Positions 2,564-56,186 of a DNA stretch of 64,000 bases are shown here, in pieces. The stretch's first letter is position 1. The number at the start of each line of letters is the position of its first letter. Position numbers and translations under genes: made by a program. The stretch is from Candidatus Harrisonbacteria bacterium (GTDB taxonomy: Bacteria > Patescibacteriota > Minisyncoccia > UBA6257 > 02-FULL-45-10c), in NCBI GenBank assembly GCA_016214655.1, contig JACROC010000005.1, positions 3,078-67,077 on the forward strand. The letters are read 5' to 3'. The notes under the pieces are model-generated. The model saw nothing but the letters and a program-made list of their open reading frames with translations, was not told the DNA's origin and searched no databases.

Positions 2564-2570
2564 ACCATTT

Positions 2571-2650
2571 AGCTGTTAGCTGTTAGCTATTAGCTGTTAG
2601 AAATTTTAATTTATCTAAAAGCCAAAAGCTCAAAACCAAAAGCTGTAATT
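2571..2650. repeat. tandem heptamer array (AGCTGTT)x4 plus partially complementary array (CTAAAAGCC-like) directly upstream of the rpmA start
   Basis: Direct reading: agctgttagctgttagctattagctgttag followed by ctaaaagccaaaagctcaaaaccaaaagct. In the mRNA sense this gives (CUAACAG)n directly before the GTG start of rpmA. Confidence 0.8.
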
Positions 2651-2672
2651 TATTAAGAAATTATAGTACCAT

Positions 2673-2834
2673 ATGACCGATATGTCAAATATGTCTAATT
2701 GGGCTGATAAGCTTAAAAAACGCGAAGTTATCTTATTTTTAATCTTATTTTTGATCAGTTCTCTTAGTTTTGGACTAGGTTATTTGTTGGCGAAACAAGA
2801 AGGAGCGGCGCCTATCATTATTGAGAAACAGTGA
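2673..2834 (+). CDS. possible small membrane protein (about 53 aa, MTDMSNMSNWADKLKKREVILFLILFLISSLSFGLGYLLAKQEGAAPIIIEKQ)
   Basis: Unannotated short ORF in a 295-bp gap with one clear TM helix. No obvious SD. Coordinates approximate. Confidence 0.3.
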   Translation: MTDMSNMSNWADKLKKREVILFLILFLISSLSFGLGYLLAKQEGAAPIIIEKQ

Positions 2835-5333: not shown

Positions 5334-8300
5334 AGCGCATTGGTGCTGGAGGAGGAACTGGCGGCGGAGCAGCGGGGGATTGCGGCGCAGGTGGTTGCGA
5401 CATAGGCGGCTGCGGCGTGGCCGCGGTGCCAGGTTTCATTTTAATATCCAGCGTTGGCAGGCCCGCTTTTTCTAATATCAGTGATTCAGACCGGAATGAC
5501 GCGAAGCCGGCTTTAGAGCAGGTGATATAATATTTACCGGGCGTAAGCAGGAAGTGGAAACGTCCTTGCTCATCGGTAACTTTAGTGGCTAAAAGCCAAT
5601 TTTTTTCTTCGTCAAAAATTCTGACGACCGCCAATGACAGGGGAGAGTTAGTGGCTTCATCAATAATCGTGCCGAATGGTTTGAGTAACCGGAAAGTGAA
5701 GTAGATTTTTAACGAATCTAAAATTATATAAACTATGAGCGTGAAGTAGTTCAGAAAGTTTGGGACAATAGCAAGAGAAACAATGCTGACCAGAGTTCCA
5801 AAAGCCAGCAGATACGGATTTAAAAGTTCGATAAATCTCTTAAGGGCGTTCCATATATTGACTCTCTTAAGATATTCCAGACTGATTTCTCCGATGCTCG
5901 GAGTGATGGAAAGTTCTAAGTTAAGAATTTGATCCGTTGTAGATATGGTAATAGCTTCTGTTTCAAAGGTTTCGTATCCGTTCTTAGAAACTTTAATGTA
6001 ATATTTTCCCGAACCTACTAATGCGCCAAAGCGTCCTTCTAAATCGGTAGTTTGGCTATCCTTTAATTTTTTAAACTCTGATTCATAGATTTGGATAGTT
6101 GCCGCCTGGAGAGGTTTGCCGCTTAATTTATCAATAATTCTTCCCCATGGCTTGCGCCGTTTGAACCGGATTAAGCCGAGTAAATAAAATCTGCTCAAAC
6201 TTAATGTTTGAAGCACTTGGGAAAGATTAATTGCGAAAGTGGCGCTGCCGGCAGTAGCGGTAACAGTTACTGCTCCGGCAGTTGCGGTAGAAACGGTTAT
6301 GGAAACTGGTGTTGCAATATCGTCCACTGTTTTTCGCGTGCCCGGATCTTTCCTTAATATTGCGACGGTTTTCTGAACCTCGCTATTTAATACTTTTAAT
6401 GATTCGGTGAATTTAAAACCCTTGGAGATTATTATATTAACCGTGGAATTTGGCGGAAGATTTTCAGCGTTCCATTTGACATTATATTTTTTCCCGATAG
6501 TTAAAGTTTCTCCGCCATTCGGATATAGGAGTTTAATTGACGGACCGCCGGCAGTTTGGGCGTAAGCAACCAACTGGTTAGCGGTAAAAATTTTTCCGAG
6601 TGATGCCGGTATAAATAAACTGCTAATTTCTCCTTCTGTATTTTGCAAAGCGGCCAAAGAAGCAACTAAGTTGAAAGGCGCATCACTGCTATCCTGAATT
6701 GACGAATCGGCAGAGGAGACCACGGTTATTCTGTAGTCGCTGCCCGGGGTAAGCGCTAAGGTGCCAACTTCGCTGGCCAGAACTCCCTTTGAAGTGCTCC
6801 AGGTATGCCGTCCGGTATTTGGAGCGTCGCTTACGATTATTGCAATCCCAGCAGATCCGGTAGTGATGCCTTTAAATGTTTCCAGGAAGCCAGTTGTTAC
6901 TGCATTTCCGATTTCTGCCGCTTCTGCACCAAGGCGGCGGACAGTTTCCAGGGCTTCAGCTGTGGAAACCCGAGCTTCGGCGGCTTCAATAATAGCGTTT
7001 AAAGAATTCGTTGTGATGGCGGTGATATCCAGTCCGGCGGTTTGCGCCTCAGCTAATTCTATAATGATATTGGTGAAGGCGATGGAGCTGATGTCTGAAA
7101 TATTTACCCCTTGGTCTGCGGCCGCATCTAAAGCGGTAATGATAGTGCTTAATGCTTTTGAATCAAGGGTGCTTACATTAACGCCGGAGGTTTGCGCTGA
7201 ACTAAGACCCTGAATAAATAACGACATAACCTCACTATCAATTGTTGTTAGATTTACGCCGGTACTGGCGGCGATATCTATCGCTTGTATCGTGGCAGCT
7301 AGCACTGCGCTATCAACGGCTGAAATGCCGGCGCGTGTTTCAGCAGCCGCATCCATAGCCAGAATGACCGATGAGATGGTTTGGGTATTAAGTGTAGTTA
7401 CATCAACCCCACTCGTCGAGAGCGTATCTACTGCCTGAATAACCGATGATAAAGCTTCGGTATTAATTGTCGTGACATCTGTTCCTTCGGTCGCCGAGGT
7501 ATTAACTGCCTGAATTACTGAAATAAGAGTTTGGGTATTAATTGCGGAAATATCCACGCCGGCTGTTGAAGCCGCGTCTACTGCTTCCACGACCGCCGCT
7601 AATGATTGGGTATCTATTGAAGCAACATCGGTTCCAGTATTTGCGGCAGTGTTTAGAGTTTCAATTACTGTTACGAGGGTATCGCTATTAAGCGTAGTAA
7701 CATCTGATCCTATGTCGGCGTTGCTATCCACCGCTTGTACAACCGCAGCCAGGGTTGTGGCATCGATTGTTGATACATCCAGCCCGGCCGTTGCGCTAAG
7801 TTCTACCGCCTGAAGAACAGCGCTTAATGTATCGTTGCTAATAGTGCTAGTTTCCGTGCCTTCTGCGGCCGACTGCGCTACGGCTTCGGTAACGGCGGTG
7901 ATAGTTTCTGCGCTTGCCGTAACACCAGTTGTTTCTACTGCCGTGGAGACGCTAGTTTCGGCTGTTGCAGTTTGTTCGGTTGTTGGCGTAGGAGTCGGAG
8001 ATGGCGTCGGTGTCGGTTCTGGACTTGGTGCCGGAGCCGGGGCTGGAGCTGGTGTCGGTTCTGGACTTGGTGCCGGAGCCGGCGTTGGAGCCGGTGCCGG
8101 AGCTGGCGTTGGAGTGGGAGATGTTCCTGCACCCGCGCCCGCTCCACCACCGCCACCACCTCCACCGCCGCCTCCACCAGTAGTGCAAGTGGTTGATTCT
8201 GGAGTAATAGTGTAGGTCAAAGATCCGCCGCTGGATGGCATGGTGATAGTTAGGGTGTTTTTGGTGTCGCTGCAGCTGGTGGTTAGGTAATCTGTTCGTG

Positions 8301-12840: not shown

Positions 12841-14109
12841 CTAGAGATACTTTCCCGGGTCTAGGTCACCGCCATATGGCATTATTGGCCCGCAGTTAAT
12901 CTTACTTGAGCCAATTCTGAAGGTTTGGCTGGCATATACTGTCAAGTGGAGGTGCGGACCGGTCGCATAGCCAGTATTTCCTACATATCCAATTAATTGG
13001 TCACGTTGAACTTCATCTCCCTTTTGAACCGCCTGTAAAGACAGGTGCGCGTATAGAGTTGTCAAATTATTTGGGTGTTCAATTACAATAAATTTGCCGT
13101 ACGCTGCTTTGTAACAATATTTATCTTGATTCCAAACTTCAAGCACCTTTCCTTTTTCTGATGCATAAACCGGAGTTCCTATTGGAGCTGCAAAATCTAG
13201 TCCGTTGTGCCACTGGCCTTTGTAACCTAAGCGGGCAAAACTGGTTGCTCCATAACCCTGAGAGAGTATTCCTCCTGGGACTGGCATGGCCAGCACGCCT
13301 GGCCGCGGAATTGGCAAGAGACTCGGATCAATTTTAGCTCTTAGTTCCGCTTCCAGTTTTTCTATTTCTGACGCAATGGCTGCCTGCTGTTTTTCCAGAT
13401 CACTGATCAATTTTTGATAATTTTTTTCCTGGTTTTTTGTTCGGACCAGCAGATCTTGCCTATCATTTTTTTCTTCAGCCGTGATTGATTTCCGGTTTTT
13501 TAAGTTTTGATTTTCTAATTCCAGTTTTGATTTTTTATCCCCGGTTAGATCTAATTTATCGGATAGTTCTTCATCTAAAACTTCTAATTGTTGTATTTCG
13601 GTTGCTATCCGGTCATTAAAATCGGCTAAATTTTGTATTTCCGATAAACTGGCGGCAAGGCTTTTATGTTTTAAAAGCATAATCAGCGTATTTTCGCTGT
13701 CTTTTTTCTGCACTGTCCTCAAGATTTCGGCAATGCCAGACCGCTGTGTTCCTATTTTTGAACGGACGCCGCCAATATCGTATTCTAAGGACTGGATTTC
13801 CAGTTTAAGTTTGTCAATGTTGATTTCACTGGAACGGATGCTGAGATCAAGCTGGCGGAGGCGATAGTCAATCTGCTTGATTTCTTTTTGGAGAGATTTG
13901 CCCTTTCCCTCGGTTGCCTCCAGCTCCTTTTGGGTTTGCGCGATTTTCTGATTTACCTCCTGCAGTTCACGGGCTTTGTCGTTAATGGCGTTTTTTAGGT
14001 CCGCGGGGATTTCATTAGCGAATGAATAATGAATCAGGAATGATGAATAAAGGAGGGCTGGTAAAAACCAATAAATAAATTTGCGCATAATTCTTGGTTC
14101 ATAATTCAT
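12841..14109 (-). CDS. coiled-coil M23 family metallopeptidase (EnvC/NlpD-like murein hydrolase activator)
   Basis: N-terminal TM/signal and long coiled coil. C-terminal M23 motifs are HNGLDFAAPIGTPVYA and GYATGPHLHLTVY. Confidence 0.8.
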   Translation of the reverse strand: MNYEPRIMRKFIYWFLPALLYSSFLIHYSFANEIPADLKNAINDKARELQEVNQKIAQTQKELEATEGKGKSLQKEIKQIDYRLRQLDLSIRSSEINIDKLKLEIQSLEYDIGGVRSKIGTQRSGIAEILRTVQKKDSENTLIMLLKHKSLAASLSEIQNLADFNDRIATEIQQLEVLDEELSDKLDLTGDKKSKLELENQNLKNRKSITAEEKNDRQDLLVRTKNQEKNYQKLISDLEKQQAAIASEIEKLEAELRAKIDPSLLPIPRPGVLAMPVPGGILSQGYGATSFARLGYKGQWHNGLDFAAPIGTPVYASEKGKVLEVWNQDKYCYKAAYGKFIVIEHPNNLTTLYAHLSLQAVQKGDEVQRDQLIGYVGNTGYATGPHLHLTVYASQTFRIGSSKINCGPIMPYGGDLDPGKYL

Positions 14110-15518
14110 GATTCCAGCTTCTGGATTGCCATTTCTATTCTTCTAAGCGTTTCTTCTTTTCCGATAAAGCTCATTATTTCAAACGGGCCAGGCGATTTGT
14201 TTTTTCCGGATAAGGCAACGCGCAGAGGCCAGAGAATCTCTCCCCTGCCGTTGGTATTGGCAAGTGGCATGATTTCCGCTTCCAATTCTTTTTGACTGAA
14301 TTCATTAATTAAAAGACTGCGTAATAGTTCTTGAGTTAATTTTAAGTTAGTCAGGGTTTTTTCTGCGGACGATTCTTTCCAGATTAAAAGGTTCTTATCA
14401 TATTCATGTATGTCGAAAGAATCTTTCAGGGTTTGGAAATCTGTTAATTTCTGCATTCGGCTCCTCCCTACTTCTAAAAGTTTAAGGGCGTTATTTTTAT
14501 CAGATATGATTTCCGGTTTATTTTTATAAAAATCGATTAAGGCTCCGTAAAGATCTTTTGTGCTCATATTTTTTATATATTCTCCATTAAGCCAATCAAG
14601 TTTTTGAATATTAAAAATTGCGCCGCTCTTTTGAACTCTCTCAAGACTGAATTCTTTTATCAATTCTGATAACGAGAAAATTTCCCTATCATCCGAGGGA
14701 TGCCAGCCAAGTAAGGCGATGAAATTAATCAGCGCCTCTGGTAAATAACCCAAGTTTTTATATTCAAAAACTCCTGTTGCTCCGTGGCGCTTAGAAAGTT
14801 TAGACCGATCCGGGGCTAAATTCATTGGTAAGTGGGCAAAGGCCGGGATATTCCAGTCAAACATTTTATATAGAAGCATGTGTTTTGGTGTTGACGGCAG
14901 CCATTCCTCAGCTCGAATGACGTGAGTGACACTCATTTCATGATCATCAACTACTGATGCCAGATGATAGGTTGGGTAACCATCGGATTTAATTAATATT
15001 TGATCGTCGAATAGCGATAAATCAAAAATAATCTCGCCGTGTATTAAATCGTTTACGGCAATACTCCCCCCTTTCGGCACTTTCATTCTTATCACGAATT
15101 CTTCGTCAGCGACGTCGTTCTTTTTCAAATTTAACTCCCGGCAATGTCCTTTATAGCGCGGAGGTTTTTTTTCGGCTATTTGCCGTTCGCGATCCGCAGT
15201 TAATTTTTCTTTGCTGCAAACACAAATATAGGCGTGGCCATTATTCAGCAGTTCGTTGGCGGCCTTTTTGTATATTTCCAGTCGTTCTGATTGGATAACT
15301 ACTTTATCGTTATTATCTGGAACTAAACCAAGCCAGTTAAGCGCTGCTATGATATGGCCGACCGATTCCGGAATATAGCGTTCACGATCTGTGTCTTCAA
15401 TCCTTAACAAGAATTTTCCACCGTTATGCCTTGCGAATAAAAAGGCAAACAACGCGGTTCGCGCGCCGCCAACATGCAATTCTCCGGTTGGGCTGGGAGC
15501 AAATCTTGTGACAATCAT
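14106..15518 (-). CDS. gltX: glutamate--tRNA ligase
   Basis: HIGH motif (PSPTGELHVGGART) and KMSKS-type KLSKR. Full-length class I GluRS. Confidence 0.9.
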   Translation of the reverse strand: MIVTRFAPSPTGELHVGGARTALFAFLFARHNGGKFLLRIEDTDRERYIPESVGHIIAALNWLGLVPDNNDKVVIQSERLEIYKKAANELLNNGHAYICVCSKEKLTADRERQIAEKKPPRYKGHCRELNLKKNDVADEEFVIRMKVPKGGSIAVNDLIHGEIIFDLSLFDDQILIKSDGYPTYHLASVVDDHEMSVTHVIRAEEWLPSTPKHMLLYKMFDWNIPAFAHLPMNLAPDRSKLSKRHGATGVFEYKNLGYLPEALINFIALLGWHPSDDREIFSLSELIKEFSLERVQKSGAIFNIQKLDWLNGEYIKNMSTKDLYGALIDFYKNKPEIISDKNNALKLLEVGRSRMQKLTDFQTLKDSFDIHEYDKNLLIWKESSAEKTLTNLKLTQELLRSLLINEFSQKELEAEIMPLANTNGRGEILWPLRVALSGKNKSPGPFEIMSFIGKEETLRRIEMAIQKLES

Positions 15519-22352: not shown

Positions 22353-23939
22353 ATGTTTAAAAAACTAAAATTATTAGTTATTAGTCATTGGTTACTAGTT
22401 GTTATTATAATTATAGCTTCCTTCTTACGGCTCTACAATTTAACTGAATTGCCTCCAGGCCTTTATCCTGATGAGGCTATGAACGGCAATAATGCAGTAG
22501 AGGCGTGGGAAAACCGGGATTGGAAGGTATTTTATGGGGAAAACTTCGGCCGGGAGGGATTATTTATTAATATTCAGAGCTTATCCGTGGCTGCTTTCGG
22601 TAATCAGCCATGGGTTTTAAGGCTGCCAAGCGTCATTTTTGGGATATTAACGGTATTGGGGCTTTATTTCTTTACCAGAGAACTATTTGTGAATTATGAA
22701 TCAAGAATTAAGAATCATGGAGATGATCCAAAAGCCCATAATTCATTATTCAGTATTTATTATTCAGAAAAAATAGCATTATTAGCTAGTTTTCTGCTAG
22801 CTACGAGTTTTTGGCATATTAATTTTTCTCGTATAGGGTTTCGCGCCATCATGGCGCCCTTCTTTTTAACTTGGACACTGTATTGGCTATTATTAGCTCT
22901 TAGAAAAAAACAGGAAGGTCAATGGTCAGGTGTCAGATGTCAGTTGTTGTCAGCCTCGGCCGGCCTGATATATGGTCTTGGTTTCTATAGTTATATCGCT
23001 TATCGCGCCACCCCTTTTCTTGTGGTTTTTATCTTTTGGCTTTCAATGTTTAGATGCGGATGGAAGAATGTTGTGAGGGTCGGTGCGGCATTTGCCGCAG
23101 CCGCGATTTTGATTGCTTTGCCGCTCGGAATTTATTTTTTACATAACCCGCAAGATTTTTTTGGCCGCACAGCCGGCATTTCAATTTTTGCATCGGGAAC
23201 GCCGATTCGCGATCTAGCTTTTAATATTTTAAAAACTGCCGGAATGTTTAATGTGGTTGGCGATTTTAATTGGCGGCATAATTTTGCTGGCAGGCCGGAG
23301 CTTTTCTTCCCGGTAGGAATAATATTTTTGATAGGACTATTTTTTGCAATACGAGATTTAATTAAAAATGCAAAAATCAAAAATCAAAATGACAGTTCGA
23401 AAATTTTCCATTTTCCATTTTCTATTTTGACTTCTTGGTTAGTTGTCGCTGCTTTGCCGGTCGTGATATCTAATGAAGGTCTCCCCCATGCCCTTCGTTC
23501 TCTTTTGATGGTTCCACCAGTTTTTGTCCTGGCTGCAATTGGCGGATTAAAGGTTTATGATTTTTTAAATAACTTGGTCGGGGATTCTTGGTTAAACAAA
23601 TTAAGCTTTTTGTTTGTGGCTGTCCTATTATTAGAAGCGTACTTGGTTTATTTTATGGCTTGGGGCAGGCATCCGACTGTTAAAACTGCATTTGCATATC
23701 GGGATTATTTAATCGCTCAGCAGCTTAATTATTTACCGAAGGAATTGCCTAAATATATTGTAGTAAGCGATGCAACCGGAGTAATTGAGCGGGATAACCC
23801 AATTTCACTCCAATCCGTTTTATTTTTAACTGATACTTTTACTGATACGAAGCGGCGGGAAAAGAATTTTATATATGTTACTCGAGATCAATTTAATTTA
23901 ATATCTCTTCCGAAAAACAGTCTTATTATAAAATTGTAA
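22353..23939 (+). CDS. GT-C glycosyltransferase of the PMT/ArnT family (GT39/GT83-like)
   Basis: Multi-TM protein with the first-loop acidic motif (YPDEAMNG) typical of ArnT/PMT. The ORF track starts at 22305, but that overlaps the upstream gene, so the ATG at about 22353 (MFKKLKLLV) is more likely. Confidence 0.75.
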   Translation: MFKKLKLLVISHWLLVVIIIIASFLRLYNLTELPPGLYPDEAMNGNNAVEAWENRDWKVFYGENFGREGLFINIQSLSVAAFGNQPWVLRLPSVIFGILTVLGLYFFTRELFVNYESRIKNHGDDPKAHNSLFSIYYSEKIALLASFLLATSFWHINFSRIGFRAIMAPFFLTWTLYWLLLALRKKQEGQWSGVRCQLLSASAGLIYGLGFYSYIAYRATPFLVVFIFWLSMFRCGWKNVVRVGAAFAAAAILIALPLGIYFLHNPQDFFGRTAGISIFASGTPIRDLAFNILKTAGMFNVVGDFNWRHNFAGRPELFFPVGIIFLIGLFFAIRDLIKNAKIKNQNDSSKIFHFPFSILTSWLVVAALPVVISNEGLPHALRSLLMVPPVFVLAAIGGLKVYDFLNNLVGDSWLNKLSFLFVAVLLLEAYLVYFMAWGRHPTVKTAFAYRDYLIAQQLNYLPKELPKYIVVSDATGVIERDNPISLQSVLFLTDTFTDTKRREKNFIYVTRDQFNLISLPKNSLIIKL

Positions 23940-26922: not shown

Positions 26923-27035
26923 ACTTCTAAAGTATAGCAGAAATTACTAAGGGCGTGGCCGTGATTGTTGTCAAAAGTTTAAACAAATTGCCTTGGTTTA
27001 TTCTCTGCATGGATCATCATTATATCAGTATATTA

Positions 27036-37657: not shown

Positions 37658-37662
37658 TCATT

Positions 37663-37742
37663 ACAGCGTTTAGCGGTTAGCGTTTAGCGGTTAGGGCAAA
37701 AAAATATTTTCCTAAACGCTGTACGCTGTACGCTGTACGCTA
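37663..37742. repeat. heptamer tandem arrays (GCGKTTA)x4 and (CGCTGTA)x3 forming an imperfect hairpin between alr and ftsQ
   Basis: acagcgtttagcggttagcgtttagcggttaggg ... cctaaacgctgtacgctgtacgctgtacgcta. In the mRNA sense (CUAAACG/CUAACCG)n ends 9 nt before the ftsQ AUG. The distal array overlaps the alr stop. Confidence 0.8.
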
Positions 37743-38849
37743 AGTAACCACTCTTTCAATTAACGGATTAATTCTGGTTATCAATTCATAATGTATAGTC
37801 CCCATTTTTTGGGCGACGTCAAAAGCGGAAAGCCCCTCTCCTTTTTGTCGTCCGATAATAGTGGCTTTGTCTCCGACTTTGCAGGAGATATTGCCCGCAT
37901 CAATTACCACCAAATCCATGGAAACTCTGCCTAAAACTTTGGCTTTTTTTCCGTTGATTAATACTTCCCCTACTCCGGAAAGCGTGCGCGGAAAGCCGTG
38001 CCAGTACCCGATTGGCAGTATTGCCATTTTAGTCGGTTTCTGGACTCGTTCCACCAAATCATAACCAACAAAATCCCCAGCTTTCAATTTTTTTATTTCA
38101 CTTATTACCGTGTGCCAAGAAAGAGCCGGCTTAAATTTAAGTTCTGGTCGCTGGATTGTCAGTTCTTTTGACGGCCAGAGTCCGTAAAGCCCAATACCGA
38201 TTCTTACCATGTCTAACTGATATTTTGGATTAACTAACGTTCCGCCGGTTGCGGCAGCATGACACAAGATGTTTTTGAATCCGGATCTTTCTAAAAGATT
38301 CAGGGCTTTTTGGAAACTGGCAAACTGATTCTCGGTGTAGGTCGGGTAATTTATATCTTTGGCGGATGCAAAATGAGTATAAGCGCCAATTAAATTTAAT
38401 CCCCTTTGTTTAATTAATTGGGTTACCGGCCGCAGATCGCTATTATAAAATCCTTGGCGGTGCATACCGCTGTCAATTTTTAAATGGAATGCCGGCTTCC
38501 ATTTGCTGGCGGTTAAAGCCTTTAAGGCGTCCCAATTAGAAACAGTAATAGTCAGACCGTTTTTAGCCGCAGATTCTAGATAAAAAGGCAGTGATGGTCC
38601 AAGCACCAAAATTGGCTTTTTAATGCCATTTTCTCGCAATTTACGGCCCTCCGGCACGCTGTCAACGCAGAAACCATTTATGCCAAGTTGAGTAGCTATT
38701 TTGGAGAATGTTGTAAGTCCATGCCCATAGGCATTAGATTTAACCACTGACCAAAGCTGGGTTTTGGGAGTTAGTAAGGACTTTATCTGCTTTATGTTAT
38801 GGGCTATGGCTTTAGAATTGATCTCTACCCAGGTTTTATATTTTTGCAT
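37740..38849 (-). CDS. alr: alanine racemase
   Basis: PLP-binding motif VVKSNAYGHG and a full-length fold. Confidence 0.85.
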   Translation of the reverse strand: MQKYKTWVEINSKAIAHNIKQIKSLLTPKTQLWSVVKSNAYGHGLTTFSKIATQLGINGFCVDSVPEGRKLRENGIKKPILVLGPSLPFYLESAAKNGLTITVSNWDALKALTASKWKPAFHLKIDSGMHRQGFYNSDLRPVTQLIKQRGLNLIGAYTHFASAKDINYPTYTENQFASFQKALNLLERSGFKNILCHAAATGGTLVNPKYQLDMVRIGIGLYGLWPSKELTIQRPELKFKPALSWHTVISEIKKLKAGDFVGYDLVERVQKPTKMAILPIGYWHGFPRTLSGVGEVLINGKKAKVLGRVSMDLVVIDAGNISCKVGDKATIIGRQKGEGLSAFDVAQKMGTIHYELITRINPLIERVVT

Positions 38850-39456: not shown

Positions 39457-40722
39457 TACCAAGATAATTTTGCAATACCTTGGGGACTAATACAGTCCCC
39501 TTTTCTGTTTGATAGTTTTCTATGATAGCGATAAGAATTCTTCCAATGGCAAATGCAGTTGCGTCATTCATGTGCACTAACTCTGTATTGCTATTATTTC
39601 TTTTCACCCGGGTTTTGAGGCGCCGGGATTGATAATCCGTCATAAGATCTGAGGTGTGAGTTTCCCGGTATTTATTTTGGCTAGGCATCCAAGTTTCTAT
39701 ATCTATCTGCCTGGCATCCGGCCCGCCCATATCTCCGGTACAGACAGATACGACCCGATACGGAAGTTTTAGGCTTTGCATAAGATATTCTTGAATGCTG
39801 ACTATAAAATCCTGTTCCGAGCGGGACAGTTCCGGAAGTGTAAATGATTCAAGTTCTATCTTATCAAATTGGTGTACGCGCAGGATTCCGTAGACGTCCT
39901 TTCCATAACTTCCAGCCTCCCGGCGAAATGCCGAAGAAAAACCAACATACCTGATTGGTAATTTATTTTCCGGAATTATTTCATCCATATGCAGCGGTCC
40001 AAGCGTATGTTCAGCGCTGCCGACAAGATAAAGACCTTCTTTTGGAAGATAAAATCTTTCATCTTGTTGTCCCGGATCGAGGCGGGCCATCCGGGTAAAG
40101 GTTTCTGGATTTATCATTACCGGCGGAATTACCGGAATAAATGGCTTATCTGGGAAATCCGGACTGATTTTTTCCGCTACTTTTTTAATAAAATTTTTAT
40201 CAGTCAGCAATGAAAACACATACTGAACAATTGCAAATTCCATGATTGCCAATTGTCCTTTTAGATAATTGAATCGCGAACCGACCACTTTGCTGGCAGT
40301 TTTTGTATCAATTATATCCAGCGCCTCTCCAAGTTCCATGTGGTCTTTTGGTTTAAAATTAAATTTTGGTATTTCTCCCCAGGTCCGGATAACTTGGTTT
40401 TCGTTTTCGTCTTTTCCAATTGGCACGTCTTTAAATGGCAGGTTTGGGATCTGATATAAAATTTCAGTCCGTATTTTTTCTAATTCGTTTAAATTATTTT
40501 CAATTTTCTTTATTTCCTCTTTTAGTTTTTTGGCCTCTTCCACCCTTTTTGCTTCCCCAAGTTTTTTTTGTTCGGCGCGCATTTCGTCAAATTTTTGCGT
40601 CAAAGCGCGCCATTTTCGGTCCACTTCAAGGAATTTATCTACTAGCGCTGGGTCCGCGTTTTTAGCGGCAATTCCCCTTCTTACGGATTCAGGGTATTTG
40701 CGTATGAGATTGATATCTAGCA
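39428..40722 (-). CDS. serS: serine--tRNA ligase
   Basis: N-terminal coiled coil (MLDINLIRKYPE...) and a class II core. ORF track extends to a TTG at 40762; the ATG at about 40722 is preferred. Confidence 0.9.
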
Positions 40723-40779
40723 TAGTTATTAGTTTAGTATAGAATATCTTAAATAAAAACAAAAACCCCCTTCGGGGTA

Positions 40780-41103
40780 TTATTCAAAATATCTAGGATG
40801 CGGCTGAAGATGTTCTGCTGGGATATTCACGAGTTTCCGGTCAAATCTTGGTTCGTGGGTTGCCGGTTCTTGGTCTGAATCAGGTTCAATTCTGACTAGC
40901 GGGCCAACTCCACACCGGTCCTTCATCACGCAAAGGTCCATCGTCCGGTCTATCAGGCTGACTTTTGCTCCTTGCCTGACGGCAAGTATTGTTGCGGGGA
41001 AGTTTAGGTCTTGGGAAAAGAGAATAATCTCTACGTCTTGATTAACTAGCATCAAAAGAAGTCTTGGGATATAAACTACTTCCTTTGGAGCGTCGGCCGT
41101 CAT
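40780..41103 (-). CDS. hypothetical protein, possible NYN/LabA-like C-terminal fragment (107 aa)
   Basis: Strong SD AAGGAGGTG 4 nt before ATG (MTADAPKEVVYIP...). DVEIILFSQD...AVRQGAKV resembles the second half of a NYN domain. Moderately GC-rich. A weak CCCC-UUC-GGGG hairpin plus U-run follows. ORF track starts at 41160. Confidence 0.4.
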   Translation of the reverse strand: MTADAPKEVVYIPRLLLMLVNQDVEIILFSQDLNFPATILAVRQGAKVSLIDRTMDLCVMKDRCGVGPLVRIEPDSDQEPATHEPRFDRKLVNIPAEHLQPHPRYFE

Positions 41104-41308
41104 GCCACCTCCTTGCTGTCTGAAGTTGTCGGAAAAGAAAAAGACTCCTGAATCCATCAATTATATCTCAAAGATCAAAACTAAGACGAGCTTGCCTTAG
41201 TAGTTGATCCTTAGGGATAGAGTCGATAGACCGCAAGAGTCTTTGCCCTTTCCTTTTCAGGATAATAGTTATTTTATAGCATACTTTAATTTATTTTTCA
41301 AGTACCAT

Positions 41309-41337
41309 TGACTTTTTGTATAGTTTAATGTAATATA
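41309..41337 (+). promoter_or_regulatory. sigma70-like promoter TTGACT-17-TAATAT
   Basis: ttgactttttgtatagtttaatgtaatat is followed by the SD GGCGGAGGTGG and the ATG at 41362. Confidence 0.5.
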
Positions 41338-41361
41338 AAGAAAATCTGGCGGAGGTGGAAA

Positions 41362-42006
41362 ATGAGAAAGTTCCTGCCGTTGCTAGCTCTTTTATTATTA
41401 AAAAATGGAAAGATTCCGAATGAAGTTCGGCAATCCCCCGTTGTCTCTCATAATAAGTTCGGAGTGGTTTTTTCCTCAAAGCAGCACGATCCCGATTGGC
41501 TGTGGCAATTTAACGTTGATTATCGGTTTATCAGCCGGACTTTATGGCCGGAATTGCTGAGAATTACGAATACAGATCCGGGGTTGCGGATTCCAATAAT
41601 CAAATTAAGCGAGGAGGAGCCGTTTGAGAATAAAATTTTGATTTTTGGGAGATATATGACTGCACAAAAGGAGATCCGCGTATATTATTTTAACATTTAT
41701 AGTTATATCGGAAGAATGAATTTGGCCAGAAGGCAAAAATTGGATGCTAAAGAGTGTAATGTTCAGCTATACTCCAATATTGCGCATGAACTTTTGCATT
41801 ATATTCTTCATATGAAAGGCATATCTTGGGAAAACCAGAATCATCATCATCTGATGTATGAAAGCGGCATTTCCCGGGGGGCCAATAAGTTCATTACGCT
41901 GTATTTCTATTCATCCGGATTATCTTACGCTACAGATATGAGTTATCTGCGAGAGAAAAACGATGAATATCTCCGCGTTGCAAAACTCAATAAATCCAGC
42001 CCCTAA
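41362..42006 (+). CDS. secreted HExxH-motif protein (putative zinc metallopeptidase)
   Basis: Signal peptide MRKFLPLLALLLL and the motif IAHELLHYILH. Confidence 0.55.
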   Translation: MRKFLPLLALLLLKNGKIPNEVRQSPVVSHNKFGVVFSSKQHDPDWLWQFNVDYRFISRTLWPELLRITNTDPGLRIPIIKLSEEEPFENKILIFGRYMTAQKEIRVYYFNIYSYIGRMNLARRQKLDAKECNVQLYSNIAHELLHYILHMKGISWENQNHHHLMYESGISRGANKFITLYFYSSGLSYATDMSYLREKNDEYLRVAKLNKSSP

Positions 42007-43469
42007 AAAGGCTGGATTATTTTTTTAAGCTTCATTAATGGAAAGGTTTGGCATTCTCTGGCAGTTTTATTGGCTAAAAAGCTGAATACCCGTTCACTCA
42101 TGCCGAAACCGCAAGTTGGCGGCATTCCGTATCCCAATGCCTCAACAAAATCCTCATCTTTCATCTGCGCCTCTTCGTCTCCCGCCTCTCTCAATTTCAT
42201 TTGCTGGTCAAAGCGCTGTTCTTGTTCTATCGGATCGTTAAGTTCGCTATAGCCATTGCCTAATTCAGAACCAGCAATGATAACTTGAAATCTTTGGGTT
42301 AGTTCCGGATTTTTCTCGTCTTTTTTTGCCAGGGGTGAAACTTCCACTGGTGCGCCGACCAGGAAGCCTGGTCCGGGAATTTGCCTGCGGCAATATTTCC
42401 AAAGGTTGTCTATGGCTCTGGTAAGATTAAATCCTTTCCGGTCATATTCTATTTTAAGTTCGTTAAGTTTTTTTTGAATTTCTTCTAGATTGGTGTTTAG
42501 GATATCAACGCCGGTATATTTTTTAACTGTCTCCCGATAATTGTATCTTACCCATTCCCTGTCCAGATCCACTTTAAAATCGCCGATGGTGAATTTAAGG
42601 GTTCCAAACGCTTTCATTGCAATATATTTATATAATTCCTCCACTAATTTCATTCCCATTTCATAATCGGCGTAAGCCCAATAAAATTCCATCTGGGTAT
42701 AATCCTGCAAGTGTTCGGCATCCATGCCTTCGTTTCTGAATTGCCGGCCGATTTCAAAAGTTTTTTCAAATCCAGCTACCATCAGTCTTTTCTGCCATAG
42801 TTCTCCCATGGATATCCGCAAGTAAACATCTATATCCAGAGCGTTGTGATGGGTTATAAATGGCCGGGCATCTGCTCCGCCGGGAGTAGTTTCCAGAACT
42901 GGAGTTTCTACTTCCATAAATCCCCTGTCTGTCAAAAAAGTTCTGGTTGCATTCCAGAATTTTGCTTTTTTTCCCACTAAATCCTTCACTGCCGGATTAA
43001 AAATCATATCTAAATATCTTTTTCTTAATCTTTCTTCTTCGTTATGAAAACCATACCAGGCGGCTGGCAGCGGCCGGATGCTTTTGGTGGCCATTATTAA
43101 TTTTTGAGCATCCACGCTTTTTTCACCCTTTTTGGTTTTAAAAAGAGTTCCCTGAGCAATAACAAAATCACCGATATCAAGATTATCTTTCCAGATTTGA
43201 AAGTCCGGGACTTTTTTCCTAGTTAAGACAGCCTGTATCTTGCCGCTTTCATCTTGGATGTCTAAAAATATTACGCCGCCTTGGATTCTCATGCCCGTTA
43301 TTCTTCCGCCAATGAAAATTGCTTTCTTAAACAGCGATAAAAAGAAAAAGCGACGCAGCACGTCACCGATGTAATCCCTTTTTGCTGCTTTAGCCGGGTA
43401 AGGATTATAGCCGGCTTTTATCAGATTGTCGCGTTTTTTAAGACGTTCTTTAATAAGGTCTTCAAGCAT
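42003..43469 (-). CDS. lysS: lysine--tRNA ligase (class II)
   Basis: N-terminal OB-fold (GGRITGMRIQGGVIFLDIQDESGKIQ), motif 2 FRNEGMD and motif 3 region. Confidence 0.9.
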   Translation of the reverse strand: MLEDLIKERLKKRDNLIKAGYNPYPAKAAKRDYIGDVLRRFFFLSLFKKAIFIGGRITGMRIQGGVIFLDIQDESGKIQAVLTRKKVPDFQIWKDNLDIGDFVIAQGTLFKTKKGEKSVDAQKLIMATKSIRPLPAAWYGFHNEEERLRKRYLDMIFNPAVKDLVGKKAKFWNATRTFLTDRGFMEVETPVLETTPGGADARPFITHHNALDIDVYLRISMGELWQKRLMVAGFEKTFEIGRQFRNEGMDAEHLQDYTQMEFYWAYADYEMGMKLVEELYKYIAMKAFGTLKFTIGDFKVDLDREWVRYNYRETVKKYTGVDILNTNLEEIQKKLNELKIEYDRKGFNLTRAIDNLWKYCRRQIPGPGFLVGAPVEVSPLAKKDEKNPELTQRFQVIIAGSELGNGYSELNDPIEQEQRFDQQMKLREAGDEEAQMKDEDFVEALGYGMPPTCGFGMSERVFSFLANKTARECQTFPLMKLKKIIQPF

Positions 43470-43473
43470 ACGC

Positions 43474-43935
43474 TTACTCTATGGAAATTACAGTGTACTC
43501 CACTTTTCCGCCTGGAGTTGTAACCAAAACTTTATCACCAACTTTTTTATTCAAAAAAGCGCTGCCTAGGGGTGATTCGTTAGAAATTAAGCCCGCCTCC
43601 GGCTTCGCTTCATTAGAACCGACGATAGTAAGTTTTCTTCGTTGCCCGTCTGCTTTTTCCACCTCAACTGTTGAACCAATGGAAACATTAGTTGTGGATT
43701 GTGATTTTTCGATAATTGCTGCACTTTTAATCATATCTTCCAATTCGCCAATCCGAGTTTCTACTTGCGCCTGCTCTTCTCTAGCGGCAATATATTCTGC
43801 GTTTTCCGAAAGATCGCCCAATTCTTTTGCGCGCTTTAATCTTTCTCCGACTTCAATACGCCGCCTACCCTTAAGGTCGGCAAGCTCTGTTTTTAATTCT
43901 TCTAACCGCTCTTTTGTAAAATATTGTTTATCCAT
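43474..43935 (-). CDS. greA: transcription elongation factor GreA
   Basis: N-terminal coiled coil with GDLSENAEY and a C-terminal FKBP-like domain. Confidence 0.9.
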   Translation of the reverse strand: MDKQYFTKERLEELKTELADLKGRRRIEVGERLKRAKELGDLSENAEYIAAREEQAQVETRIGELEDMIKSAAIIEKSQSTTNVSIGSTVEVEKADGQRRKLTIVGSNEAKPEAGLISNESPLGSAFLNKKVGDKVLVTTPGGKVEYTVISIE

Positions 43936-43938
43936 ATT

Positions 43939-44670
43939 TTAATTTAAATTATAAGTTTTCCTCCATAGCCACCAGCGTATTTTAACAGTTTCTGCCAGAA
44001 CTTGCAAATAGGTTTTTAGAGAAACATGCGTACGAGGATCATTTACCCAAAATATCGGCATTTCCTTGATTTTGTATCCTAGGGCTTTTGCAATTGCCAG
44101 AGCTTCAGCGTCAAAACCCCATCGGTCGATTTTTGTAAGATGAAAAATTTTTTCAGCTGTTTCGTCCGAAAAACACTTAAATCCGCATTGGGTATCCCAA
44201 ATTCCCGGAAGAAGCAGTGTCTGGATTATTAGATTTCCAATGTTGCCTAAAGCTCGTTTATAAACTGGTTGTGCCGGAAGGGTTCGTGCGCCTTTTGCGT
44301 CTCTGGAACCGATCACTATTTCATACCCTTCTTTAAAATATGGAATCATTTTATTAAATTCCACAATTGAAGTGGAATTATCTGCGTCCATAAATAATCG
44401 CCAAGTTCCCTTTGCAGCTAGCATGCCTTGCCGCACTACTGCGCCCTTGCCTCTGTTTTCTTTATTATTAATTAGTTTAAGATTTTGGATTAGCGGCATA
44501 AAGCGATTTACGATCTCGGCGGTATCATCGGTTGAGCCATCATCGACTATTAAAATCTCATATGAATACTCCTGCTGTTCCAGGTGTTTATCAATATCAA
44601 TAAGCGTCAGCGGCAAACGCTTGGCTTCATTGTAAGCTGGAATTATAACTGATAAAAATGGTCGCGCCAT
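43939..44670 (-). CDS. GT2 family glycosyltransferase (polyprenyl-phosphate sugar transferase-like)
   Basis: VIIPAYNE and VDDGSTDDT GT2-A signature. Confidence 0.8.
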   Translation of the reverse strand: MARPFLSVIIPAYNEAKRLPLTLIDIDKHLEQQEYSYEILIVDDGSTDDTAEIVNRFMPLIQNLKLINNKENRGKGAVVRQGMLAAKGTWRLFMDADNSTSIVEFNKMIPYFKEGYEIVIGSRDAKGARTLPAQPVYKRALGNIGNLIIQTLLLPGIWDTQCGFKCFSDETAEKIFHLTKIDRWGFDAEALAIAKALGYKIKEMPIFWVNDPRTHVSLKTYLQVLAETVKIRWWLWRKTYNLN

Positions 44671-49582: not shown

Positions 49583-49636
49583 TGTTAGGTGTTGGGTGTT
49601 AGGTGTTAGATAATTTTTCTAAAACCTAAAACCTAA
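49583..49636. repeat. heptamer arrays (GGTGTTA)x3-4 and (CCTAAAA)x2-3 between rpsH and rplF
   Basis: tgttaggtgttgggtgttaggtgttag ... ctaaaacctaaaacctaa. In the mRNA sense (CUAACAC)n ends 1 nt before the rplF AUG. Confidence 0.85.
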
Positions 49637-49641
49637 TTAAA

Positions 49642-50022
49642 CTACCAAATTTCAAATAATAATTGTCCCCCAATTTTTTGCCTTTTCGCTGTTTTGCCGT
49701 CCATGATACCCTTAGAAGTTGAAAGCACTAGCAAGCCATATCCTTGTCTTACTGATTTTAATTCCTGATAGCCAGCATATAATCTTCTGGATGGTTTACT
49801 GAGAATGCGTATGCCTTGAACTACTCCTTTGCCGTCATTGTATTTTAGTTTGATGTCAATTATCCTTTTTGGCATTCTGCCCTTTTTAAAAGCCCCATCT
49901 AAAAATTTATGTGCGACTAAAAGTTCGGCAATAGCGAAATCCATATTGCTATACGGAGATTTAACACTCTCTTTCTTAACTGCCTGGGCATTTTTAATTT
50001 TGGTTAATAGATCGCAATACAT
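49642..50022 (-). CDS. rpsH: 30S ribosomal protein S8
   Basis: Colinear S8 similarity. Confidence 0.9.
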   Translation of the reverse strand: MYCDLLTKIKNAQAVKKESVKSPYSNMDFAIAELLVAHKFLDGAFKKGRMPKRIIDIKLKYNDGKGVVQGIRILSKPSRRLYAGYQELKSVRQGYGLLVLSTSKGIMDGKTAKRQKIGGQLLFEIW

Positions 50023-50046
50023 GATTTTATATAGTAGCTTGTTGAA

Positions 50047-50232
50047 TTACCACGATGATTTTTTTACTCCCGGTATTTCTCCTTTAGTTGCCAATTCACG
50101 GAAGCAGATCCGGCAGAGATCAAAATCTCTTATATATCCCCTTTTTCTTCCGCAACGGAAACATCTCCGGACGGTACGGGTAGAAAATTTTGGTTTCTTT
50201 TTGGATCTTGCTACTACTGATGTTTTAGCCAT
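50047..50232 (-). CDS. rpsZ: 30S ribosomal protein S14, zinc-binding type (61 aa)
   Basis: C-x2-C...C-x2-C ([20 protein letters not shown]). Confidence 0.9.
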
Positions 50233-50248
50233 AATTATAAGTTACTAA

Positions 50249-50788
50249 TTATTTACTAAATGGTATTCCTAATTGTTTATACAAATCCATCGATTTTTCT
50301 CGATCGCGAATTTTAGGCACTAAAGTGATTTCCATTCCAAAATTTACTTTAGTGATATCCAAGCTTACCTCGGGAAAAACCGAATGTTCTTTTAAACCGA
50401 TAGTCAAATTGCCGTTTTTATCCACCGCTTCTTTTTTGATTCCGCGGAAGTCACGCAAGCGTGGCAGGGCAACATTAACCAATTTCTTTAGAAATTCATT
50501 CATTCTTTCTTGCCGCAGAGTAGTTTTTAAGCCAACCACTGTTCCGGTCCTTAATTTAAAACCGGCAATAGATTTTTTAGCTGGCCGGACAGCCGGTTTT
50601 TGTCCGGTGATCGCGCTTAACTCCTTGGTTAATTCAGGTAAAATCTTATCAAAATTCGGCTGGCCCGAAAGACGTCCAGTGCCGACGTTGATTACAATTT
50701 TCTCAAGTTTTTTATTACTTTCATTCATAAGATTGAATTTATAATACAGCTTTACACTTTTTGCAATAACGGATTTTAGCATCACCAT
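50249..50788 (-). CDS. rplE: 50S ribosomal protein L5
   Basis: KLEKIVINVGTG. The N-terminus (LKSV...KFN) aligns with bacterial L5, so the 5' end overlaps the rplX 3' end by about 50 nt in another frame. Confidence 0.85.
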   Translation of the reverse strand: MVMLKSVIAKSVKLYYKFNLMNESNKKLEKIVINVGTGRLSGQPNFDKILPELTKELSAITGQKPAVRPAKKSIAGFKLRTGTVVGLKTTLRQERMNEFLKKLVNVALPRLRDFRGIKKEAVDKNGNLTIGLKEHSVFPEVSLDITKVNFGMEITLVPKIRDREKSMDLYKQLGIPFSK

Positions 50789-51044
50789 CTACTCGATAAC
50801 CAACTCTTGTAGGTTCGCCGCAGGAACGGCAAACCAACATTGTGTTGGAAGCATTTAGCGGACGGGAGATAGTAATCGTTTCTCCTTTTTCGCCTTGTTT
50901 TTTTGGTCGTTGATGTTTTTTAAATACATTTGCGCCCTCAACTAAAATACGGCCGCTCCGCCGGTCAACTTGCAAAATCTTTCCTCTTTTACCCTTATCT
51001 TTGCCCGTTATTATTTGGACATTGTCGCCTTTACGTAATTTCAT
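50739..51044 (-). CDS. rplX: 50S ribosomal protein L24 with C-terminal zinc-ribbon extension
   Basis: KOW motif (KGDNVQIITGKDKGKRG) and a C-terminal CRSC...CKKC. Confidence 0.9.
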   Translation of the reverse strand: MKLRKGDNVQIITGKDKGKRGKILQVDRRSGRILVEGANVFKKHQRPKKQGEKGETITISRPLNASNTMLVCRSCGEPTRVGYRVDGDAKIRYCKKCKAVL

Positions 51045-51053
51045 GATAATTTT

Positions 51054-51422
51054 TTATACTACTTCTTCCGCCATTGTAAATACGGTTTCAAATTTCTTTT
51101 CTTTAATTTCCCGCGGCAGTGGCCCGAAAATGCGGGTTCCTTTTGGTTCCTTTTTCTCATCTATGATAACTACGGCGTTATCATCAAAACGCAAATAAGA
51201 CCCGTCTTTCCGGCGCAGCGCTTTTCTTTGTCTGACTACCACGCATTTTACGATGTCTTTCTTCTTGATAGCTTTTCTTGGTTCTGCAATTTGGACCGAA
51301 GCAATAACAATATCCCCGATTTCCGCATATCTTTTTCGGCTGCCGCCCAAAACTCTAAAACAACGCACGATTTTGGCGCCGCTATTATCCGCTACTTTTA
51401 ATATGGAACGTTCTTGTATCAT
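51054..51422 (-). CDS. rplN: 50S ribosomal protein L14
   Basis: [17 protein letters not shown]. Confidence 0.9.
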
Positions 51423-51513
51423 AGGTTAGGGGTTAGGGGTTAGGGGTTAGGGGTTAGGGGTTAGAAAAATTTATTTATAAAATTCTATACCCTCAACCCT
51501 ATAACCTAAACCC
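51423..51513. repeat. (GGGGTTA)x6 tandem array plus C-rich partially complementary array between rpsQ and rplN
   Basis: ggttaggggttaggggttaggggttaggggttaggggttag ... ccctcaaccctataacctaaaccc. In the mRNA sense (CUAACCC)6 ends 1 nt before the rplN AUG. The G-strand has five or more GGGG tracts and is capable of forming a G-quadruplex. Confidence 0.9.
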
Positions 51514-51766
51514 TTGAAATAACTACCCATCTTTTTTCTTTGCTCATCGGCCTGGTTTCTTGGATGATTACCTGATCTCCGACTTTATATTCATTATTTT
51601 CGTCATGGGCTTTAAATTTTTTGGTAACCTTAAAATACTTTTTATATTTGGGGTGTAATTTTAACGAAGTAATCGCCACAACTACGGTTTTCTTCATTTT
51701 GTCGGAAACTACCGTAGCTTGTAATTTACGTCCGGCTGATACCGGTTTATTGAGTGTCTCGGGCAT
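51506..51766 (-). CDS. rpsQ: 30S ribosomal protein S17
   Basis: Colinear S17 OB-fold similarity. Confidence 0.9.
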
Positions 51767-56112: not shown

Positions 56113-56186
56113 TAAAAATCACCTCGCAAGATTAGCAAGGTGATTTTTTAAAATGCTTTTAGCTAATCCTTACGATGCGATATAGT

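Follow-up and report, generated by a model that had tools for sequence, protein, structure and literature searches.

Why do several genes of a Candidatus Harrisonbacteria bacterium, including the ribosomal-protein genes rplN and rplF, begin immediately after tandem arrays of a 7-nucleotide (nt) unit? This bacterium belongs to the Parcubacteria/Paceibacteria, within the candidate phyla radiation (CPR), and we analyzed a 64-kb stretch of its DNA (the window), which is about a quarter of the genome. One protein encoded in the window matches HZB99_01610 from a Candidatus Harrisonbacteria metagenome-assembled genome at 100% identity. A preliminary description of the window reported arrays that read (CUANNNN)n in the mRNA, each paired with an imperfectly complementary array, and suggested that the resulting hairpins sequester start codons. 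We propose that the arrays are heptamer palindromic elements that resemble the short tandemly repeated repetitive (STRR) sequences of cyanobacteria, as well as miniature inverted-repeat transposable elements (MITEs), repetitive extragenic palindromic (REP) sequences, and Rickettsia palindromic elements (RPEs). We put the probability of this reading at roughly 55%. The elements do not look like a dedicated regulator of ribosomal proteins. They are of a kind that is already known and is apparently newly met here in the CPR, and its function in the known relatives is unexplained.

Period 7 stands out in the window. We called tandem arrays with Tandem Repeats Finder (TRF) and with period scans, one for strong arrays and one for looser segments. 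There were seven strong arrays of period 7, versus 0.1 expected, and none at any other period from 5 to 14; the single array of period 4 matches the expectation. The looser scan found 15 period-7 segments (0.3 expected), about 0-1 at other periods, and four at period 12. The units are CTAACCC, CTAACAC, CAGCTAA, CTAAACG, GAATTAT, and AAAAATC, and the GAATTAT and CTAACCC families each occur at two loci within the window. The scan and the folds bear out the suggestion that the arrays are a genome-wide feature and that most of them are paired into imperfect hairpins. Sites that had been missed are 14019-14114, 22684-22769, and 23358-23436, plus weaker period-7 arrays at 10605, 22367, and 22914 (Table).

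At four leader or intergenic sites (upstream of rplN, rplF, ftsQ, and rpmA), the mRNA has a purine-rich, C-poor array near the upstream stop codon (at rpmA, in the 5' untranslated region, or UTR), an A/U-rich loop, and a G-free (CUANNNN)n array that ends 0-7 nt before the start codon. All four pairs are predicted to fold as hairpins with helices of 4-6 bp that are broken every 7 nt. The energies of these hairpins relative to shuffled sequences (fold z) are -2.2 for rplN, -2.6 for rplF, -4.5 for ftsQ, and -3.3 for rpmA.

Reading the mRNA and running TRF confirmed the array sequences at rpsQ-rplN and rpsH-rplF. Between rpsQ and rplN, the mRNA reads GGGUUUAGGUUAUAGGGUUGAGGGUAUAG, a 20-nt A/U loop, (CUAACCC)5 CUAACC, U, and AUG. 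The start-proximal array stops 1 nt before the rplN ATG (51422), and its plus strand is (GGTTAGG)n with GGGG runs. Between rpsH and rplF, the mRNA reads UAG, 5 nt, UUAGGUUUUAGGUUUUAG, a 9-nt loop, CUAACAC CUAACAC CCAACAC CUAACA, and AUG. Here the start-proximal array directly adjoins the rplF ATG (49582), and the 5' array has one U.C mismatch per unit against its 3' array. The upstream array was said to overlap the preceding stop codon. This holds for rpsQ, whose TAG (51506-51508) lies in the first unit of the array, and for alr, but the rpsH stop (49642-49644) is 5 nt upstream of its array. Similarly, the architecture had been extended to ftsQ, rpmA, and the gene at 33370..33720. The first two fit, although the rpmA hairpin is a 5' UTR and not an intercistronic spacer, because a sigma-70 promoter with 12 of 12 consensus positions lies ahead of it. 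The third gene has a single unpaired array with an insignificant fold.

We looked for known signals at these sites. Rfam, whether for autoregulatory leaders of ribosomal proteins or for other curated RNA families, gave no matches at its gathering threshold in the window or in 10 related loci, and the ribosomal-protein hairpins had no match to a tRNA or tmRNA, a promoter, or a terminator. On the minus strand, there is no terminator-like site in 49583-49641 or 51424-51514, where the start codons follow the hairpins directly. The divergent region at 33.7 kb had only weak matches to promoters or terminators.

Table. Heptamer arrays and associated features in the window (positions in the window; sequences as in the mRNA, except the promoter)
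Feature	Positions	Strand	Evidence
Start-proximal G-free array (CUAACCC)x5.9	51424..51464	-	TRF period 7, 100% match, score 82; fold
A/U-rich 20-nt loop of the rpsQ-rplN hairpin	51465..51484	-	Minimum-free-energy structure
Degenerate complementary 5' array GGGUUUA GGUUAUA GGGUUGA GGGUAUAG	51485..51514	-	Sequence, TRF, fold
Start-proximal array (CUAACAC)x3.9, one substitution	49583..49609	-	Sequence, TRF (90%), fold
5' array (UUAGGUU)x2.6, rpsH-rplF	49619..49636	-	Sequence, TRF, fold
Start-proximal array (CUAACCG/CUAAACG)x4.3 before the ftsQ-like ATG (37657)	37660..37694	-	TRF, fold z -4.5
5' array (CGUACAG)x3.7 containing the alr stop TAG (37740-37742)	37716..37745	-	TRF, fold
Start-proximal array (CAGCUAA)x4.6, 5 nt before the rpmA GTG (2563)	2569..2600	-	TRF, fold z -3.3
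5' partner array of the rpmA leader hairpin, AGCUUUUGG-type, period 7/14	2617..2644	-	TRF, fold
Consensus sigma-70 promoter TTGACA-17-TATAAT, 12/12, upstream of the rpmA hairpin	2660..2688	-	Promoter scan
Paired arrays (GAAUNAU)n ... (UUAUUCA)n over the gltX stop, the M23-peptidase start, and signal-peptide codons	14019..14114	-	TRF, fold z -1.7
Paired GAAUUAU-family arrays in the GT39 open reading frame (ORF), aa 128-155, indel-variable loop	22684..22769	+	Looser scan, fold, alignment
Paired arrays (AAAAAUC)n-AAAAUGACAGU ... (AUUUUCC)n in the GT39 ORF, aa 352-378	23358..23436	+	Looser scan, alignment
Unpaired start-proximal array (CUAGUCG/CUAAUCA)x4, 3-7 nt before the ATG at 33720	33724..33761	-	TRF; fold z -0.9, not significant
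G-rich GGGUUAG-like array (reverse complement of the CTAACCC family), in frame inside ORF 33370..33720	33472..33503	-	TRF, scan

We examined 80 ribosomal-protein-operon loci, as slices of about 8 kb, from species-representative genomes with 70-88% identity in L14. (An exact-protein look-up of the L14 returned no record, and a metagenome scan with L5 found no close relative, with a best identity of 66%.) Across the 80 loci, there were 114 segments of period 7 and 3-35 at other periods, and the period-7 segments were concentrated in about 20 genomes. We compared spacer lengths over 13 gene junctions, and they are bimodal: most spacers are -20 to 30 nt, and sporadic inserts of 60-220 nt turn up at various junctions in various genomes. 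In the four closest species (85-88% L14 identity), the S17-L14 spacer is 3-10 nt long, the S8-L6 spacer is 17-31 nt long, and neither contains arrays, so the two ribosomal-protein arrays of the window are not conserved even among near relatives.

Some of the relatives provide filled and empty versions of one site. Locus L018 and its relatives L022 and L015 (90-91% nucleotide identity in rplN) have S8-L6 spacers of 95 nt versus 19 and 9 nt, and S5-L15 spacers of 74 nt versus 5 and 45 nt, with conserved flanking codons. L018 carries heptamer hairpins at both junctions, where L022 and L015 have plain short spacers. At alr-ftsQ, the syntenic locus L161 reads TGA TT ATG, and the window has 82 nt of hairpin exactly from stop to start, with both protein ends unchanged.

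The same elements also appear at other sites. Three junctions that are not orthologous (S8-L6 in the window, S5-L15 in L018, and L22-S3 in L047) share one hairpin, (UUAGGUU)n-loop-(CUAACAC)n, including its U.C mismatch in every unit. A family with a non-repetitive core, AAAATCAAAATGACAAT, has 10 matches in nine loci (0.6 expected); eight of these are close and come from eight genomes. All of its matches are sense-oriented, in spacers and ORFs alike. The element at 23358-23436 in the window belongs to a family that is present in eight genomes. Family copies in the relatives number 3-6 per 8 kb, and copies within a genome are more alike than copies from different genomes (p ~1e-8 to 1e-10). For example, five members of one family lie within 7 kb in L047 and have even the flank TAATAATTCAAG in common, and L020 has three copies whose 37-nt 3' arms are near-identical. 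The preliminary description took absence from close relatives as a sign of neutral microsatellite expansion. The four closest species are indeed array-free at S17-L14 and S8-L6, but the same families are at other sites in other relatives, which points to elements that move or turn over rapidly, and away from both a conserved regulator and a microsatellite of purely local origin.

We did consider purely local microsatellites, which would arise de novo by slippage at each site, acquire an inverted copy by template switching, and have neither movement nor function. The 3' array at rplN is 100% perfect, which implies recent expansion; orthologous elements in L018 and L047 differ by 14 nt, or two units; and the closest relatives lack the arrays. 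Heptamers are also the commonest long simple repeats in many bacteria, and an origin by polymerase slippage has been proposed (Mrazek 2007, as cited in PMC4679880). However, slippage at each site would not be expected to give identical composite hairpins, with both arms and the mismatch, at non-orthologous sites of different species, nor a non-repetitive core conserved in eight genomes, nor near-identical copies in one genome that extend into the flank. We consider this explanation improbable.

Heptamer arrays also occur within coding sequence. The two pairs of arrays in the GT39 ORF encode the peptides VNYESRIKNHG...HNSLFSIYYSE and KIKNQND...FHFPF. Each peptide lies in a loop of variable length that is bounded by invariant blocks. 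Some homologues have similar peptides and others lack them, among the latter P0016 from the closest relative. The matching DNA in L161 and L162 consists of paired heptamer arrays, and L162 has six such arrays in one gene. The GAAUUAU family is in the same frame at the N-terminus of the M23 peptidase as in GT39. In this behavior the elements resemble RPEs, which insert in frame into protein loops.

REP sequences and the bacterial interspersed mosaic elements (BIMEs) built from them, Correia elements, MITE-like elements, and RPEs are short, multi-copy, hairpin-forming non-coding elements that lie between co-transcribed genes and show presence/absence polymorphism. The elements in the window share the hairpin, the dispersed similar copies, and the presence/absence polymorphism at orthologous sites in relatives. 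They differ from REP sequences and MITEs in that their arms are tandem heptamer arrays instead of unique inverted repeats, and we found no REP-associated tyrosine transposase (RAYT) or insertion sequence (IS) element, of the IS200/IS605, IS630, or a similar type, in the window.

Closer counterparts are known in cyanobacteria, where Mazel et al. reportedly described STRR heptanucleotide sequences in 1990. STRR heptamer hairpins lie between hupS and hupL in Nostoc, Anabaena, and Lyngbya, where a role in transcript stability or translational coupling was suggested (PMC2670836). As in our elements, the units are 7 nt and lineage-specific, the arrays are inverted and lie between genes inside operons, and there are many dispersed copies. 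The unit sequences are different: the canonical STRR1-3 units CCCCAGT, TTGGTCA, and CAACAGT are not among the units of the window. Also, the CPR host has a genome of under 1 Mb with near-zero spacers, the element fills the whole gap from stop to start, there is an explicit polarity with the G-free arm at the start codon, and some copies are inserted in frame within genes.

To describe the polarity, we used 46 heptamer hairpins among the 181 long spacers in the relatives' loci. In cleanly paired cases, the composition is A45/C5/G21/T29 for the 5' arm and A37/C27/G1/T35 for the 3' arm; the distance from the stop codon to the 5' array is -3 to +18 nt and that from the 3' array to the start codon is 0-7 nt, so the start-proximal placement in the preliminary description is real and recurs in relatives. 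A purine-rich 5' side with a pyrimidine-rich 3' side is found in 30 of the 46 hairpins, versus three with the reverse; for other long spacers the counts are 22 and 47. The share of G in the last 25 nt is 6% in heptamer hairpins and 20% in other long spacers. Because the arm polarity of a palindrome is identical on both DNA strands, it is a property of the element type. Between the stop codon and the predicted stem there is a median of 6 nt, and between the stem and the start codon a median of 9.5 nt. More hairpins have their longer tail on the 3' side (30) than on the 5' side (13; p = 0.002), and about 83% of the insert is folded away. This leaves a median unpaired spacing of 16 nt in hairpin spacers, compared to a median of 8 nt for native spacers. 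The start-proximal arm is modestly more regular (p = 0.015) and more conserved among copies (p = 0.02) than the 5' arm. CUAA is present in 52% of 3' arms versus 24% of controls, and in 6 of 17 genomes no array contains it.

Stop codons in all three frames occur in 19 of the 46 hairpins and in 11 of 135 controls. We do not treat this as a designed or defining feature, since it is automatic for any 7-nt unit that contains a stop codon, and it is absent in several families.

Two further observations concern the arms. In L020, all four aligned hairpins (5301-5376, 5939-6039, 6583-6678, and 7574-7665) finish with (T/C)ACC right before ATG, so the copies have a conserved context at -4 to -1 in common. 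In L161, the murG-gltX spacer (3240-3400) has reversed polarity, with a CTAAAT-type array first, a TTTAG-type array by the start codon, and about 70 nt with TATAAT between them. It may be two half-elements or a promoter-bearing variant.

The placement of the arrays raises the question of whether they act in translation. It had been noted that rplN and rplF lack a Shine-Dalgarno (SD) sequence. In the window, an SD-like 4-mer of any sort is found upstream of just 7 of 68 genes, so the absence of SD is a property of the genome and not of these genes. Upstream regions in this genome are 40% A and 14% G.

A cis-acting element in the mRNA would be one functional explanation. The hairpin could couple translation, by joining stop and start or by opening when the upstream ribosome arrives; it could stabilize the mRNA; or it could be a site for processing by RNase III or another enzyme, with the G-free array as a standby leader. 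In its favor, the folds are better than those of shuffled sequences, the unpaired spacing comes near that of native spacers, the genome is SD-less, and the G-free start-proximal arm and the constant polarity would suit a leader. The greater regularity and conservation of the 3' arm would fit as well, and similar roles were proposed for the hupS-hupL hairpins of cyanobacteria (PMC2670836).

Most of our tests at the RNA level did not agree with this explanation. In partition-function folds, the accessibility of the start codon is 0.33-0.83 for rplN, rplF, ftsQ, and rpmA, which is within the range of 12 neighboring genes without arrays, so the proposed sequestration is not borne out. A search for compensatory variation between the arms had also been suggested. 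In alignments of two element families, the covariation term is unfavorable, and the changes are one-sided, as breaks to A.C or U.C. Of 45 hairpins, 37 fold more stably as the antisense strand than as the sense strand, and the mean difference is 4.6 kcal/mol; the share of wobble (G.U) pairs is 4.5% in the sense strand and 11.6% in the antisense, so that differences between arms appear in the mRNA as A.C or U.C. This asymmetry is the opposite of what selection for an mRNA stem would predict, and it agrees with G being depleted in the sense strand ahead of start codons. Furthermore, the arrays are patchy overall and the closest relatives lack them at the orthologous junctions, neither a terminator nor a promoter signature is present, and in-frame copies lie inside ORFs, where such a role would be meaningless. 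A regulatory reading of the arrays is thus weakly supported, and we think that a cis-acting element is fairly unlikely.

Alternatively, a protein that binds single-stranded RNA and covers about 7 nt, for example a cold-shock protein or S1, might use the (CUANNNN)n tract as a binding array and so promote or repress initiation, a role that has been proposed for TAACTGA repeats in Beggiatoaceae. A precedent for the setting is the TAACTGA direct repeats of marine Beggiatoaceae, some cyanobacteria, and some Bacteroidetes, which occur in 2-6 copies a few nt from start codons (MacGregor 2015, PMC4679880). Those repeats precede SD-less genes, including ribosomal-protein operons, and carry stop codons in all frames (PMC4679880). 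Our arrays are likewise 0-7 nt from the starts of SD-less genes, in forward orientation, patchily distributed, and subject to indels in 7-nt steps, and they share the core TAAC. However, only this core is shared by the units in the window (TAACCCC, TAACACC, TAACAGC, and TAACCGC), and the window has no TAACTGA array. (Runs of TAACTGA/TAACTAA do occur in two of the relatives' loci, at L020 7073-7109 and L071 5308-5338.) Also, the TAACTGA system uses a single unit across a genome and no secondary structure was predicted for it, while here the units vary and most arrays are paired. The enrichment of CUAA in 3' arms, the unpaired array at 33724-33761, and the homogeneity of copies within each genome would fit a binding array. 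On the other hand, units vary within one genome (CUAACCC, CUAACAC, CAGCUAA, CUAAACG, and CUAGUCG) as well as between genomes, so a single sequence-specific reader is unlikely. The 6 of 17 genomes with no CUAA in their arrays are also hard to accommodate, no candidate protein was identified, and the 5' arm, which is half of each element, is left unexplained. We therefore give a binding array little credence.

Instead, the arrays might act at the level of DNA, either by forming a G-quadruplex or a cruciform on the template strand, with an effect on replication or transcription, or by 7-nt slippage that causes phase variation of a surface glycosyltransferase. The array upstream of rplN, (GGGGTTA)6 at 51424-51464, has six G4 tracts and resembles the (GGGGATT)n repeats of other bacteria. 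In Xanthomonas and Nostoc, GGGNATC/GGGGAYT repeats lie mostly between co-oriented ORFs, with some inverted pairs (Rehm et al. 2015, PMC4692102). Their sense strand is G-rich right after stop codons and their antisense strand is G-rich upstream of ORFs, which is the same polarity that we see, and the GGGGAYT repeats form G-quadruplexes in vitro (PMC4692102). But of about 15 arrays, only the one at rplN has G runs, with the four or more G3 tracts of the known repeats. The quadruplex that the preliminary description proposed could thus apply to this array only, and quadruplex formation is not the common denominator. As for phase variation, arrays do lie inside the ORF of the GT39 membrane glycosyltransferase, where a slip of one unit would shift the frame. 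Against frequent frameshifting, these arrays are imperfect and the peptides that they encode are conserved between species. Upstream of the starts, there is no promoter or SD spacing for slippage to alter. Action at the DNA level seems very improbable to us.

Returning to the palindromic elements that we propose, we can suggest how they would have come to look as they do. They would be small and non-autonomous, with two arms made of tandem heptamer arrays, and would have settled, in certain Paceibacteria/Parcubacteria, in intergenic gaps of near-zero length, in some 5' UTRs, and in coding loops that tolerate them. They would spread between sites in a genome and come and go as species diverge, and the arrays would lengthen or shorten in 7-nt steps through slippage. 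In the mRNA, the predicted fold would loop out about 80% of the insert as a bulged hairpin and would leave an unstructured, G-free leader of about 10 nt before the start codon. This leader would resemble the native A-rich, G-poor upstream context of an SD-less genome. The stereotyped form may then be that of an insert that selection tolerates in tightly packed and probably translationally coupled operons.

Several points weigh against this proposal. Pfam scans of the window's proteins, which cover 64 of at least 271 kb of the genome, found no transposase or other mobilizing gene. No target-site duplication could be defined: several filled sites have TA or TAA at both ends, which hints at one but is confounded by the TTAG/CTAA cores of the units. 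The architecture is strikingly stereotyped (polarity in 30 of 46 hairpins versus 3, G at 6% versus 20%, and an array 0-7 nt from the start), and the orientation relative to transcription is constant wherever it can be read. The more regular and conserved start-proximal arm would also fit a functional start-proximal module, and so might CUAA in 52% of 3' arms versus 24% of controls. Finally, the basis for the proposal is a quarter of one genome and 8-kb slices of others. The constancy of placement and polarity, the regularity of the start-proximal arm, and the CUAA enrichment keep a functional reading alive, although a genuine role in translational coupling or initiation, with all its versions combined, is unlikely on the whole.

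One such version would combine mobility with function. The elements could have been domesticated as portable junctions for an SD-less bacterium: the hairpin would join stop and start for re-initiation by terminating ribosomes, and the G-free heptamer tract, which an S1-like or cold-shock-like protein would read in 7-nt register, would be a sequence-independent platform for initiation. We consider this combination decidedly unlikely. If it were true, then the heptamer hairpins of CPR bacteria, cyanobacteria, and Beggiatoaceae would be one convergent solution for translational coupling without SD sequences.

A full-text literature search found no report of heptamer repeats in Patescibacteria, so this is apparently the first time that heptanucleotide repeats have been shown in a CPR genome. 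These commonest long simple repeats of many bacteria have had no explained function since 1990. The tiny spacers and missing SD sequences of the CPR strip the system to a stop codon, a two-array hairpin, a G-free leader, and a start codon, and related metagenome-assembled genomes are sampled densely enough to offer many filled and empty sites in nature for testing selfish elements versus coupling. In CPR gene calls, the arrays also account for unusually long spacers, starts other than ATG, and variable loops, and they are likely hotspots for assembly breaks.

Other inserts in the relatives' loci are not built from heptamers. An element of about 140 nt with perfect 19-nt terminal inverted repeats (TCCCTCACCCTTCAAAGAT ... 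ATCTTTGAAGGGTGAGGG) is found at L018:3223-3371 and 6725-6866, and in L022 and L015 at L16-L29/L6-L18. At two junctions it occupies exactly the space from TAA to ATG, its presence varies among close genomes, and it looks like a classical MITE. Since these inserts sit as flush between TAA and ATG as the heptamer elements do, flush placement is a property of the niche and not of heptamers. We also noticed intergenic inserts of about 200 nt with a long stem ACCCCGCACC...GGTGCGGGGTGCTC (variants CCCGCAC and CCCTCCCC) and further hairpins beside it, with energies down to -70 kcal/mol. They occur at S17-L14 in L018 (3785-4000) and L049, at S8-L6 in L029, L042/L044, and L050, and at L24-L5 in L007, and they had no Rfam match.

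The (AAAAATC)n-AAAATGACAAT family (L001:1901-2033, S3-L16 in L020, L14-L24 in L029, and S14-S8 in L040) has a central GC-rich mini-hairpin, such as TCCCGCAGGGA. By eye, an ORF of 21-28 codons (MTIKNSKL... or MTMQNVKL...) runs from its 5' arm to a stop in the 3' arm near the downstream start, and this could be a relay ORF. We saw such a micro-ORF in this family only, and rejected it as a general feature. At L018:6164 and at L047:5527 and 5989, TTG starts come right after GAATATAG/CCTAAAT hairpins; the aligned codon is ATG in relatives with empty sites.

Paired (TTAGNNN)n...(CTAANNN)n arrays are also found outside the CPR in some viral contigs, such as L164 and L174. A special link to viruses was rejected: in scans of viral contigs, (CTAACAC)3 was found in 18 stretches and (CCTAAAT)3 in 23, and control heptamers of matched composition gave 10 and 31, so that (CTAACAC)3 does not exceed the controls. 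A search of a phage database with the phage contig L164, which is rich in paired heptamer arrays, gave no match.

Elsewhere in the window, the 74-nt S10-L3 spacer (56113-56186) has an 11-bp perfect inverted repeat, AAAAATCACCT ... AGGTGATTTTT, which is not heptamer-based and ends 1 nt before the L3 ATG; the L3 ORF is only 141 amino acids. A doubtful ORF of 91 amino acids (26993..27268) contains two nested inverted repeats at 27068-27211, one of 23 nt (91% matched) and one of 22 nt (82%), which may be a structured RNA or another palindromic insert. At 8008-8178, repeats of period 42, 24, and 9 encode Gly/Ala/Pro-rich tracts in a protein of 1073 amino acids with CarboxypepD_reg domains, which is probably a surface protein. 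Finally, the cumulative GC skew climbs to about 42 kb and then drops (40000-44000), which may mark the terminus or origin of replication, or may be an effect of the switch to uniformly minus-strand genes.

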